A stretch of 18,144 bases of DNA from a virus. Lineage: Duplodnaviria; Heunggongvirae; Uroviricota; Caudoviricetes. This document shows, one piece after another, positions 2,727 through 3,877 of the stretch. Under the pieces are notes generated by a model. That model had not been told where the DNA came from. It made no database searches and was given only the letters and a program-made list of their open reading frames with translations. The DNA lies in the IMG/VR virus record IMGVR_UViG_3300029843_000306. One strand, given 5' to 3'. Each line of letters starts with the position of its first letter. Position 1 is the stretch's first letter. A program made the translations under genes and the position numbers.

Positions 2727-3372
2727 TCAAGACCTGCTGCCCCCTGCGTATTGTCTGTCAGCGCGGTTACTGGCGGCTATCCAGTACAGTGCCGTACCAA
2801 GATAACGCGCGCTGGTTTCAACCTGCCTGATATCCGCAATCCGTTTTTCCGAGAACCAGAACTCAAACTGTACCGTCGGGTCATAAACCGCAAGATGCGG
2901 CGTGGCGGTTATCTGAAAATAGCCCGGCGTCAGCTCAATCCGCGACGGCGCTGCCGGTGCGGCAATCCGGAACGATACCGACGCCGGATCGCCCTGCTGC
3001 CCCCACGCATTTACTGCCCGGACTGTCAGCCTGTAGTTCCCCAGAGCCAGTTGTGTGAAGCGGTAAGTGGTTTCCGTCGTCCGGGCCGTGCTGACCAGCC
3101 GCTCACGGCCGTCATCCGCTGCCACGGTCAGGCGAAGCAGGAAGCTCACGCCCTTCACCACCTTCGGCGTGTCCCAGCGCGCCAGCACCTGGTATTCCCC
3201 GCTGTCTGCGGTGACTTCTGCGGTCAGGTGCTGCACCGCTGGCGGCGTGACACCATTTACCGTGCCGCTCTGGTCGCCGTCAAAGTGCGCCCCGTTATCC
3301 ACGATGGCCTCTTTTTCCGGTACATGCTGCACGGCGGTGATGGCATACGTGCCGTCGTCGTTCTCACGGATA
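2727..3372 (-). pseudogene. Internal fragment of tail-tip host-specificity protein J, fused out of frame to flanking genes
   Basis: Translation (…[28 protein letters not shown]…[43 protein letters not shown]…YWIAAS) matches lambda gpJ C-terminal region as recalled; similarity stops near 2769 and starts abruptly near 3372. Confidence 0.8.
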
Positions 3373-3877
3373 TCAGTTCATCCAGCGCGGCTGCTTTGTT
3401 CATGGCTTTGATGATATCCCGTTTCAGGAAATCAACATGTCGGTTTTCCAGTTCCGGAAAACGCCGCTGCACCGACAGGGGGATCCCGTCGAGAATACTG
3501 GCAATTTCACCTGCGATCCGCGACAGCACGAAAGTACAGAATGCGGTTTCCACCACTTCAGCGGAGTCTCTGGCATTTTTCAGCTCCTGTGCGTCGGCCT
3601 GCGCACGCGTAAGTCGATGGCGTTCGTACTCAATAGTCCCTGGCTGGAGATCTGTCTCGCTGGCCTGCCGCAGTTCTTCAACTTCCCGGCGCAGCTTTTC
3701 GTTCTCAATTTCAGCATCCCTTTCGGCATACCATCTTATAACGGCGGCAGAGTCATAAAGCACCTCATTACCCTTGCCACCGCCTCGCAGAACGGGCATT
3801 CCCTGTTCCTGCCAGTTCTGAATGGTACGGATACTCGCACCGAAAATGTCAGCCAGCTGCTTTTTGTTGACTTCCAT
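3373..3877 (-). pseudogene. nohQ: Terminase small subunit Nu1, C-terminally truncated and fused to the J fragment
   Basis: ATG at 3877; first ~168 codons (MEVNKKQLADIFGASIRTIQNWQEQGMPVLRGGGKGNEVLYDS…[13 protein letters not shown]) match lambda Nu1 as recalled, then the frame runs into J-derived DNA out of frame (track ORF 3257..3877). Confidence 0.85.

Follow-up and report, generated by a model that had tools for sequence, protein, structure and literature searches.

Three out-of-frame pseudogene fragments, joined at recurrent TA-centred breakpoints, form the late-operon remnant of a Qin-type cryptic prophage

The 18,144-nucleotide stretch of viral DNA analysed here (IMG/VR record IMGVR_UViG_3300029843_000306; the whole stretch is called the window) carries the late-operon remnant of a Qin-type lambdoid cryptic prophage at window 1814-4073 on the minus strand, where fragments of the terminase small subunit Nu1, the tail-tip protein J and the tail-fibre protein Stf stand as three out-of-frame pseudogene pieces. 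Both breakpoints that limit the J piece recur to the base elsewhere: the one on the Stf side, s0, is found in about 20 independent junction classes, and the one on the Nu1 side, after lambda position 697 (Nu1-697), in at least 10. We suggest that this anatomy and its recurrence are explained by TA-centred, enzyme-made deletion with the recombinases PinQ/PinR as the best candidates. We give this reading a probability of roughly 0.55, and the enzyme in it we infer from the properties of the joints.

The features of the region are collected in Table 1. Junction 1 reads CTGA-TA-TCCGTG, with 3373 as the last unambiguous Nu1 base and 3370 as the first unambiguous J base; in the base-level alignment the parents ...GAACTGA-TA-CCGGGG (Nu1) and ...GCGTGAG-TA-TCCGTG (J) give ...GAACTGA-TA-TCCGTG. 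At junction 2, GCCGCCA-GTA-ACCGCG, J is unambiguous to 2771 and Stf from 2767, the parents being ...GCCGCCA-GTA-TCAATA (J) and ...GGTCGG-GTA-ACCGCG (Stf) and the product ...GCCGCCA-GTA-ACCGCG. The final Nu1 codon is codon 169 (ATA, 3373-3371). Codons start at 3370-3k in Nu1, at 3371-3k in J and at 2767-3k in Stf; the three registers differ, hence both joints are out of frame. The Nu1 frame continues for 37 codons into J DNA to a stop at 3259-3257, which makes a 206-residue open reading frame (3257-3877). The J frame stops at 2729-2727, and the earliest in-frame start of the Stf fragment is the GTG at 2716. A sequence-only reading of this DNA had let Nu1 homology end near 3373, at about codon 168, had seen its frame run into an internal J segment in another frame, and had put the change from J to C-terminal Stf sequence, in a third frame, near 2770. 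Alignment to lambda Nu1 and J and to the stf relatives agrees with it within 1-3 bases at both joints, places J up to the GTA at 2770-2768, and adds the microhomologies TA and GTA at the two joints; it excludes an origin of the segments other than Nu1, J and Stf, and each of Nu1, J and Stf is incomplete.

Intact Nu1 (PF07471) has 181 residues and includes a C-terminal segment that binds gpA. The Nu1 remnant is matched over profile positions 1-164 of 164 of Pfam Phage_Nu1 (E = 3.6e-101), but it is a truncated and not an intact member, as the final 12 codons are replaced by the 37 out-of-frame ones. Intact lambda J has about 1132 residues, with N-terminal tip domains and a C-terminal receptor-binding domain. 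Its remnant is a piece of 603 bp without a start codon of its own, matched by Pfam Ig_J and Ig_J_second and by positions 576-777 of the NCBIfam profile lambda_TipJ, and holds those residues only. Full-length Stf consists of an N-terminal tail-attachment domain, a shaft and a C-terminal receptor-binding region (about 1025 residues in PhiR42_1). The fibre gene of this intact lambdoid phage relative is 99.7% identical and puts the Stf breakpoint at codon 710 of 1025; only the equivalent of codons 710-1025 is left, with the Collar and fibre-repeat domains (Pfam Collar and Phage_fiber) kept. All three fragments are pseudogenes in this strain, and we are practically certain of the anatomy as described.

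We found no further lambda morphogenetic DNA, neither in the window nor across the 32-kb region examined in the closest genome. Since the other lambda morphogenetic DNA is absent from the window, the scars are deletions and not insertions. The first deletion removed lambda 698-17228, about 16.5 kb, which is the loss from the rest of Nu1 to most of J that had been proposed from the letters alone. The second deletion, between J and stf, had been proposed as well; placed by means of PhiR42_1, it took about 4.0 kb, namely the rest of J, lom and stf codons 1-709 (PhiR42_1 coordinates).

The element adjoins ydfJ, as in strain LR-58-1, and its order ydfK-pinQ-tfaQ-stf'-J'-nu1'-cos-ynfO-ydfO-gnsB... 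is that of K-12 Qin. We assign elements to Qin by the ydfJ-adjacent location together with the order ydfK-pinQ-tfaQ-stfQ-nohA-ynfO-ydfO-gnsB-cspI-rzpQ-rrrQ-...-relBE-flxA. Window 1-2769 and 3367-14524 correspond to K-12 1633072-1647013 at 99.9%, so that the cryptic prophage recognised by the sequence-only reading is Qin. The form is rare, the two joints being combined in 4 of 5,426 complete E. coli genomes; the exact 206-residue read-through product is present on 75 public contigs. In those 4 genomes the Prokaryotic Genome Annotation Pipeline (PGAP) labels the pieces as ‘terminase small subunit’ and two pseudogenes, and for LR-58-1 it gives the three remnants as pseudogenes.

The nohA-stfQ region of K-12 Qin (b1548/b1547) shares with the window the prophage, the flanking genes and the base of the Stf breakpoint (followed by ACCGCGCTGACAG), and its right side is 99.8% identical. 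Unlike the window, it has no J piece, and its Nu1 is 22 bp longer and reaches lambda 719. The K-12 joint follows codon 3 of gene A and is in frame, and the annotated stfQ start is the gpA GTG (locus L004, 5839-5848; NC_000913.3 about 1635838-1635847). K-12 StfQ is hence gpA(1-3) joined to Stf(710-1025), and it overlaps the end of nohA as A overlaps nu1. No simple deletion turns either form into the other, although the breakpoint is common to both, and this prompted a survey of breakpoints.

We define s0 as the Stf-side breakpoint, the window boundary 2768/2767. It was sampled with the 29 nt to its right, by junction-specific BLAST on complete genomes, one scan of species representatives, one scan of metagenome contigs and two IMG/VR scans. 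About 190 occurrences were recovered, and the majority run leftwards into intact stf (...AAAAGGTCGGGTA/ACCGCG). The remaining ones form about 20 independent classes, from complete genomes, metagenomes and IMG/VR, in which the identical base is preceded by another sequence: the right side of s0 is constant and the left partner varies (Table 1). No class diverges at -3 to -25, and three nearby junctions lie off s0, at -17, at -38 (strain TOE17) and at -58 (an IS5 insertion). The polarity is pronounced. The pattern left of s0 runs into the intact right side of stf in 88 of 89 IMG/VR sequences, and the pattern right of s0 has a foreign left flank in about 17 of 101. At least 80% of the right 200 bp is kept in 1242 of 1283 E. 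coli records, and junctions inside that stretch are rare. This stf C-terminal type is carried by 1,239 of the complete E. coli genomes, 688 of them intact across s0; most of the others, K-12 among them, break at this very base next to varying partners. The K-12 joint accounts for up to 365 genomes, the window joint for 4 and other joints for roughly 190. The right sides of the window, K-12, C122 (ynfO::s0) and TOE17 (gpA::stf at -38) show 0-3 differences in 1600 bp. Near-identical right sides next to different left partners indicate that one Qin lineage lost DNA several times in parallel.

Nu1-697 has the opposite polarity, with a constant left side and a variable downstream partner. In the 90% protein cluster of the window Nu1 remnant, length variants of 184-225 residues all diverge right after ...AAALDELI (codon 169, lambda 697). 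An IMG/VR scan with the 27 nt ending in GATA returned 136 sequences that continue natively and, at this very position, at least 10 junction classes. We consider it very probable that the two hotspots are real; literature searches found no described deletion hotspot in stf or nu1.

The joints follow a common rule. Of the 20 s0 classes, 19 have TA at the joint and one has TG; TA is also present in all 16 s0 partners whose native sequence was recovered, and natively at the corresponding position in 9 of 10 Nu1-697 partners; all three window scars are TA-centred. Taken as a 2-bp crossover of the type seen at site I of serine-resolvase res, that is, an identical dinucleotide in both partners, the rule applies to 19/20 s0 classes, 9/10 Nu1-697 classes and the three window scars. 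Compared with all TA sites of lambda 1-22000, the partners are biased towards C-4 G-3 G-2 T-1 / TA / T+1 C+2 (C/G)+3 G+4, and their similarity to the palindrome CGGT-TA-ACCG exceeds that of random lambda TA sites (p = 4e-5). Each side taken by itself shows the bias, the retained one with p = 0.0005 and the lost one with p = 0.002-0.017; the retained flank from -12 to -5 resembles the reverse complement of the constant s0 flank (p = 0.002), and among the 12 best lambda matches to the palindrome 3 serve as partners. The crossover lies within TA always, even where GG or CCG matches on either side. The 8-bp direct repeat CCGCGCTG, present in nu1 (lambda 676-683) and in stf (s0+2 to s0+9), is never used as a joint, although slippage or annealing would find a far better substrate in it. 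Wherever the orientation of a class could be established, the class is a deletion between directly ordered sites.

The third window scar (Table 1) reads ...CTATT-TA-TCCGGAGC. Like the other two it is TA-centred and follows the rule, and TCCGG stands on its right side, which is retained. The lost region corresponds to K-12 1647014-1650561, the whole immunity and dic region (ydfW, ydfX, dicC, dicA, ydfABC, dicF, dicB, ydfD), and as one continuous match this scar occurs in 0 of the 5,426 complete genomes, so that the strain of origin is not one of them. With this scar at 14523-14524, with an order of events that is not fixed and with breakpoints that are recurrent hotspots, the picture drawn by the sequence-only reading is refined.

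Table 1. Features of the window around the late-operon remnant, and partners found at the two recurrent breakpoints (a slash marks a cut or a boundary)
Feature	Window coordinates	Strand	Evidence or remark
cosN, intact, GGTTACG/GGGCGGCGACCT/CGCGGG	4049..4073	-	exact 25-nt match to lambda cos; lambda position 1 = window 4066
Nu1 (terminase small subunit, nohA-type), codons 1-169	3371..3877	-	blastn, lambda 1-697 (cos + nu1) = window 4066-3371, 97.8% to lambda nu1; Pfam Phage_Nu1
Nu1-frame read-through into wrong-frame J DNA, 37 codons + stop	3257..3370	-	translation
Junction 1, TA common to Nu1 (lambda 696-697) and J (lambda 17229-17230)	3371..3372	-	base-level alignment
Internal fragment of tail-tip protein J, residues 576-777, two Ig-like domains	2768..3372	-	blastn, lambda J 17229-17833 = window 3372-2768, 95.5%; profiles
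Junction 2, GTA common to J (lambda 17831-17833) and stf	2768..2770	-	alignment; boundary 2768/2767 = s0
Stf C-terminal 317 codons + stop, stfQ type, = PhiR42_1 Stf codons 710-1025	1814..2767	-	99.7% to PhiR42_1 stf; lambda stf/tfa DNA homology only from window 2497 downwards (blastn)
tfaQ, tail-fibre assembly chaperone, intact	1239..1814	-	Pfam Caudo_TAP; annotated tfaQ in relatives
pinQ, small serine recombinase, convergent on late-operon remnant	551..1141	+	sequence comparison; candidate deletion enzyme
Third deletion scar, ...GGCTATTTA/TCCGGAGC...	14523..14524	+	comparison with K-12
s0 left partner: ynfO			E. coli C122
s0 left partners in Nu1: Nu1-697, Nu1-719			locus L057 (Nu1-697); K-12 type (Nu1-719)
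s0 left partner: gpA			lambda 955
s0 left partners: second type of large terminase gene			two positions
s0 left partner: portal gene B			
s0 left partners: E			lambda 6316 and about 6988
s0 left partner: Z			lambda 8059
s0 left partner: I			lambda 15272
s0 left partner: gene annotated as tape-measure			
s0 left partner: J-17833			the window
s0 left partner: lom stop codon			
s0 left partner: Rac ynaK			
s0 left partners: several sequences without assigned identity			
Nu1-697 partners: A-2246, A-2489			lambda positions
Nu1-697 partners in J: J-15806, J-16140, J-16488, J-17231, J-17306			J-16140, DLP12 form, E. coli B; J-17231, window
Nu1-697 partners: s0 and two others			s0 in locus L057

Several observations accompany these features. 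A perfect 12-nt direct repeat, GGGGGCAGCAGG (minus strand), is present in the Stf and J fragments at window 2733-2744 and 2993-3004, 260 bp apart, so that another small deletion could readily arise at it. Within the repeat lies the EcoP15I-type CAGCAG, absent from the other stf haplotype (CAACAGG). To the right of the third scar, window 14538-18144 (+) holds an intact 655-residue exonuclease with an Rv2179c-like domain, a DUF1233 excisionase and an integrase, whose K-12 Qin counterpart consists only of the ydfE and intQ pseudogenes, interrupted by IS2. Locus L168, an IMG/VR contig, is the only sequence found in which the left of s0 (...AAAAGGTCGG-GTA) is joined to a foreign right partner (CAACAGGAGCC...); it also holds the Nu1-697 junction GATA/CCCGGACCATC, at about J 15806. 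In locus L025 (7940-7975), a second head-gene type (DUF1441 small terminase with gpA-family large terminase) that has recombined with s0 carries the cos-like sequence CACG/GGGCGGGAGCGT/CGCGG, which is related to lambda cosN and differs in the left flank.

We suggest that the scars would arise by TA-centred breakage and rejoining with a weak dyad-symmetric preference CGGN-TA-NCCG, ideally TGTCAGCGCGGT-TA-ACCGCGCTGACA. The precision to the base, the common dinucleotide, the dyad bias that includes the discarded side, the restriction to deletions and the neglect of better microhomology lead us to infer a dimer-binding enzyme with a 2-bp staggered cut, rather than generic microhomology repair. All of these are properties of the small serine recombinases of the resolvase type. 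The enzyme would behave as a serine resolvase that acts in cis on pseudo-sites and yields deletions as its sole product. Our best candidate is PinQ/PinR, a recombinase whose gene lies 1.6 kb downstream of s0; plasmid-borne TnpR relatives could act in trans instead.

PinQ shares 162 of 193 residues (84%) with the TnpR protein P0029, whose gene lies 160 bp from a divergent tnpA (DDE_Tnp_Tn3), with TGTCCGAAA-type inverted repeats in between (locus L405, 2341-3091). By this identity to a tnpR beside tnpA and res we count PinQ as a Tn3-family TnpR resolvase; the transposon with this TnpR is a common one among enterobacterial plasmids. Upstream of pinQ, 60 bp (region 400-550) align with the tnpR-proximal end of the res of that transposon, the site III region. 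PinQ is not close to the invertases Gin, Cin and PinE (about 38% identity) and is about equally similar to gamma-delta resolvase and Gin. From the TnpR identity and the res-homologous promoter, PinQ/PinR have the appearance of a captured tnpR-res module rather than of an invertase of the Gin/Cin type. In the related TnpR, the presumptive site I spans 26 bp (12+2+12) and has the outer ends TGAC/GACA. In the constant arm of s0, TA-ACCGCGCTGACA, GACA stands in register with this site I, at 9-12 from the centre, and the constant arm of Nu1-697, TGGATGAACTGA-TA, matches TGNNNGAA in register. The other s0 arm is poor, and the dyad bias of the partner arms is weak but significant. Where its presence could be determined, pinQ lies downstream of s0 in 12 of 15 classes.

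A number of points weigh against an enzyme of this kind. The site preferences were formulated after the data had been seen, from about 16-20 classes, and the classes themselves come from pattern-anchored searches, in which junctions that lose bases to the right of s0 are under-sampled, a shortfall bounded at about 3%. In three s0 classes pin is missing in cis, and the excess of pin in the classes is not significant (12/15 classes vs 41/76 intact copies). We found no second natural PinQ-type site near stf, tfa or pin and no accessory subsites there, and s0 has one good half-site. A wild-type resolvase normally needs a complete res site, accessory subsites included. In the related TnpR, the natural site I appears to be AC-centred, not TA-centred, with the opposite polarity of the inner arm, and the outer TGTC motif is only weakly enriched in the partner flanks. 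PinQ has also been reported to act at the pix sites of e14, which look nothing like s0 (PMC12529663). We consider it about evenly balanced whether a dedicated TA-specific enzyme made the joints, and we propose only tentatively that this enzyme is a resolvase of the PinQ/PinR type. The fuller statement, in which TA-centred site-specific deletion between nu1 697 and stf codon 710 repeatedly strips lambdoid head and tail genes by the action of PinQ/PinR, encoded beside the tail-fibre genes of these phages, or of a related Tn3-family TnpR in trans, is possible and similarly doubtful.

The chief rival is ordinary illegitimate recombination, by slippage or by RecBCD-dependent alternative end-joining at 2-3 bp of microhomology, with the hotspots set by a local DNA property (a pause site or a fragile TA step) or by selection and with no dedicated enzyme. 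It draws on the 2-8 bp of microhomology at every joint and on clear microhomology scars elsewhere (PCP07083 Nu1-707::J-17192, TOE17 gpA::stf at -38 and the Z::s0 class with 8 bp). We nevertheless find it rather unlikely, for it has to meet single-nucleotide precision in about 20 and at least 10 independent classes, zero loss on the constant side, a crossover kept to TA despite neighbouring matches, a partner bias that reaches the lost side and an unused 8-bp nu1/stf repeat; s0 has no hairpin or unusual fold, and deletions of 2-25 kb are too long for slippage. As for selection, many products are out of frame, and therefore selection at the protein level cannot set the breakpoint base. The TA rule, the two-sided dyad bias of the partner sites, the precise joints and the deletion outcome would fit a dimeric sequence-specific nuclease, restriction-like or of the homing type, that cuts s0 and weaker cognate sites to leave self-complementary TA overhangs, the outer ends being joined by host ligase; the scarcity of left-constant junctions could then reflect how short the dispensable DNA right of s0 is. 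Such a nuclease is improbable. No candidate for it was found, chromosomal double cuts are usually lethal or resected by RecBCD, and the site GGTNACC (BstEII-type), which overlaps s0, predicts GGTAACC joints, of which none was seen, one class having arisen in an allele without that site.

Two further alternatives concern the history of the window and the origin of its fixed end. Whatever the mechanism, a Nu1-697::s0 deletion as in L057 may have come first, with the 603-bp J piece captured afterwards at the joint TA. L057 is exactly the window minus the J piece, both ends of the piece and the target are TA sites, native J has AGTA/TC at both ends, and the longer Nu1 of K-12 means that the forms are not a simple nested series; since a Nu1-697::Stf junction without the J piece exists, the order of the events in the window is not fixed. 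However, over 1600 positions of the right side the window shows 15 differences from L057 and 3 from K-12, hence its nearest relative is not L057. A history of two deletions, starting from a fuller ancestor, does without an additional donor of J DNA, and insertion of a gene fragment is a rarer type of event. The haplotypes thus mildly favour two deletions, and capture of J seems unlikely, though less so than the nuclease. Least probable by far is a terminase nick at a pseudo-cos in s0, followed by fork collapse and rejoining of one-ended breaks upstream. It would account for the fixed 3' end and for the polarity, and the bottom strand of s0, GGTTAC-C-CGACCT, matches the flanks of cosN, GGTTAC-GGGGCGG-CGACCT, at 12 of 13 bases if a 6-nt gap is allowed. 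The spacing is nevertheless wrong for a 12-bp staggered cut, the cos of the second head-gene type has no GGTTAC, and the Nu1-697 hotspot, the partner bias and the strict TA rule are left unexplained.

Other candidates were tried and rejected. No site of the Din family (hix/gix/cix/pix, used by Pin/Gin/Cin/Hin-type enzymes; 26 bp with the core ...AAACC-NN-GGTTT...) was found within 9 mismatches at s0, at Nu1-697 or beside pinQ, in a scan that recovered its positive controls, P1 cixL and both e14 pix sites. At window 5075-5100 (+), between ydfO and gnsB, CCCGTAAAAACGAGGTTTATGGATAA resembles the right half-site of gix/hix (GGTTT-TGGATAA) with a one-base indel, probably by chance. No inverted second s0 half-site that could bound an invertible segment was found in any locus, and s0 is not the equivalent of cix in P1 Sv', as homology to P1 puts cix upstream of s0, at a distance of about 100-220 bp. 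Against s0 as a mosaic boundary natural to intact stf genes stand a diversity that is flat across s0 and the homology of the upstream flanks in the intact genes; against a mobile Stf-C/Tfa/Pin cassette that would insert into targets stands the absence of the rest of the target genes on the other side. Folding z-scores of -0.6 and -1.0 speak against a hairpin or cruciform at s0. The GGCCA-like likeness of the first left flanks was an artefact, produced by a BLAST ranking that favours extension into the flank of the window itself, and the clustering of J breakpoints at 17174-17229 was an ascertainment effect of the junction query. Compared by eye, none of the BstEII-type site (GGTNACC), Chi, Ter, dif, the lambda att core, the integron core, the IS200/605 TTAC, the IS5 YTAR and the gyrase consensus fits the joint or the partners. 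A requirement for pin in cis is not supported either.

The scar itself is ordinary prophage decay, and its pseudogene annotation by PGAP already exists. The significance lies in the pattern, the recurrence of s0 together with an equally precise second breakpoint in nu1. Domestication of prophages is usually modelled as random deletion with a selection filter, and a nucleotide-precise, sequence-biased deletion would, if true, change this picture of random decay. An enzyme would then drive part of the ‘grounding’ of E. coli prophages, which would be predictable to the base, the cos-Nu1 and Stf-C/Tfa/Pin modules would be left preferentially, sometimes as in-frame Stf-C fusions that may be expressed (K-12 stfQ), the odd structure of the textbook genes nohA and stfQ would be explained, and PinQ/PinR would gain a testable target. 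Besides K-12 stfQ, in-frame fusions at s0 are Nu1(1-169)-StfC in L057 and portal-StfC in strain 33-6 (L008), and others are present in L025 and L040. With joints in frame in these classes, expression of receptor-binding fibre fragments there, together with the chaperone, is plausible. The pattern also bears on the frequent retention of receptor-binding fibre fragments with their chaperone, as the chimeric StfE2 is reported to block T2 adsorption and retained Stf fragments can thus matter (PMC12529663).

Outside Qin, a close parallel to the window is DLP12 of E. coli B (REL606, BL21). Its Nu1 breaks at the same TA (lambda 696-699, CTGA-TA-CC) and is fused to internal J with the microhomology TACC. 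Unlike the window, DLP12 is the argU/appY prophage, the J partner lies at 16135-16140 and not at 17229, J then runs to its end, and stf is intact. BL21 (BL21(DE3), L091) has an additional TA-type internal J deletion from 16307 to 17174, which is absent from REL606 (L002); this deletion and the REL606 joint (TA-CCCG) also follow the TA rule. In PCP07083 (L090), DLP12 carries the Nu1-707::J-17192 fusion in frame, annotated as one 766-residue protein.

The Tn3-family TnpR/res systems resemble the proposed one in the 84% identity of PinQ, in the res homology upstream of pinQ and in the 26-bp, 12+2+12 layout with outer TGTC/GACA, which fits the constant half of s0. They differ in that s0 and Nu1-697 have one plausible half-site each, with no accessory subsites found, and that Qin has no tnpA. 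Secondary-site deletions are known from lambda Int, which promotes b-region deletions ending at att, and recombination at quasi-cix sites from P1 Cin. As here, one endpoint is fixed to the nucleotide, the many partners are weakly site-like and the crossover overlap is common to both. In contrast to those systems, neither fixed endpoint described here is a known recombination site, there are two endpoints of opposite polarity, and the enzyme is one we propose. Finally, the inversion of the e14 P segment by PinQ (Kirigo et al., NAR 2025, PMC12529663), a study in which no rearrangement within Qin was reported and the P segment was locked in a pinE mutant, takes place at classical pix inverted repeats and in another prophage, while it shares with the system proposed here the recombinase gene family and the tail-fibre gene fragments of cryptic prophages.

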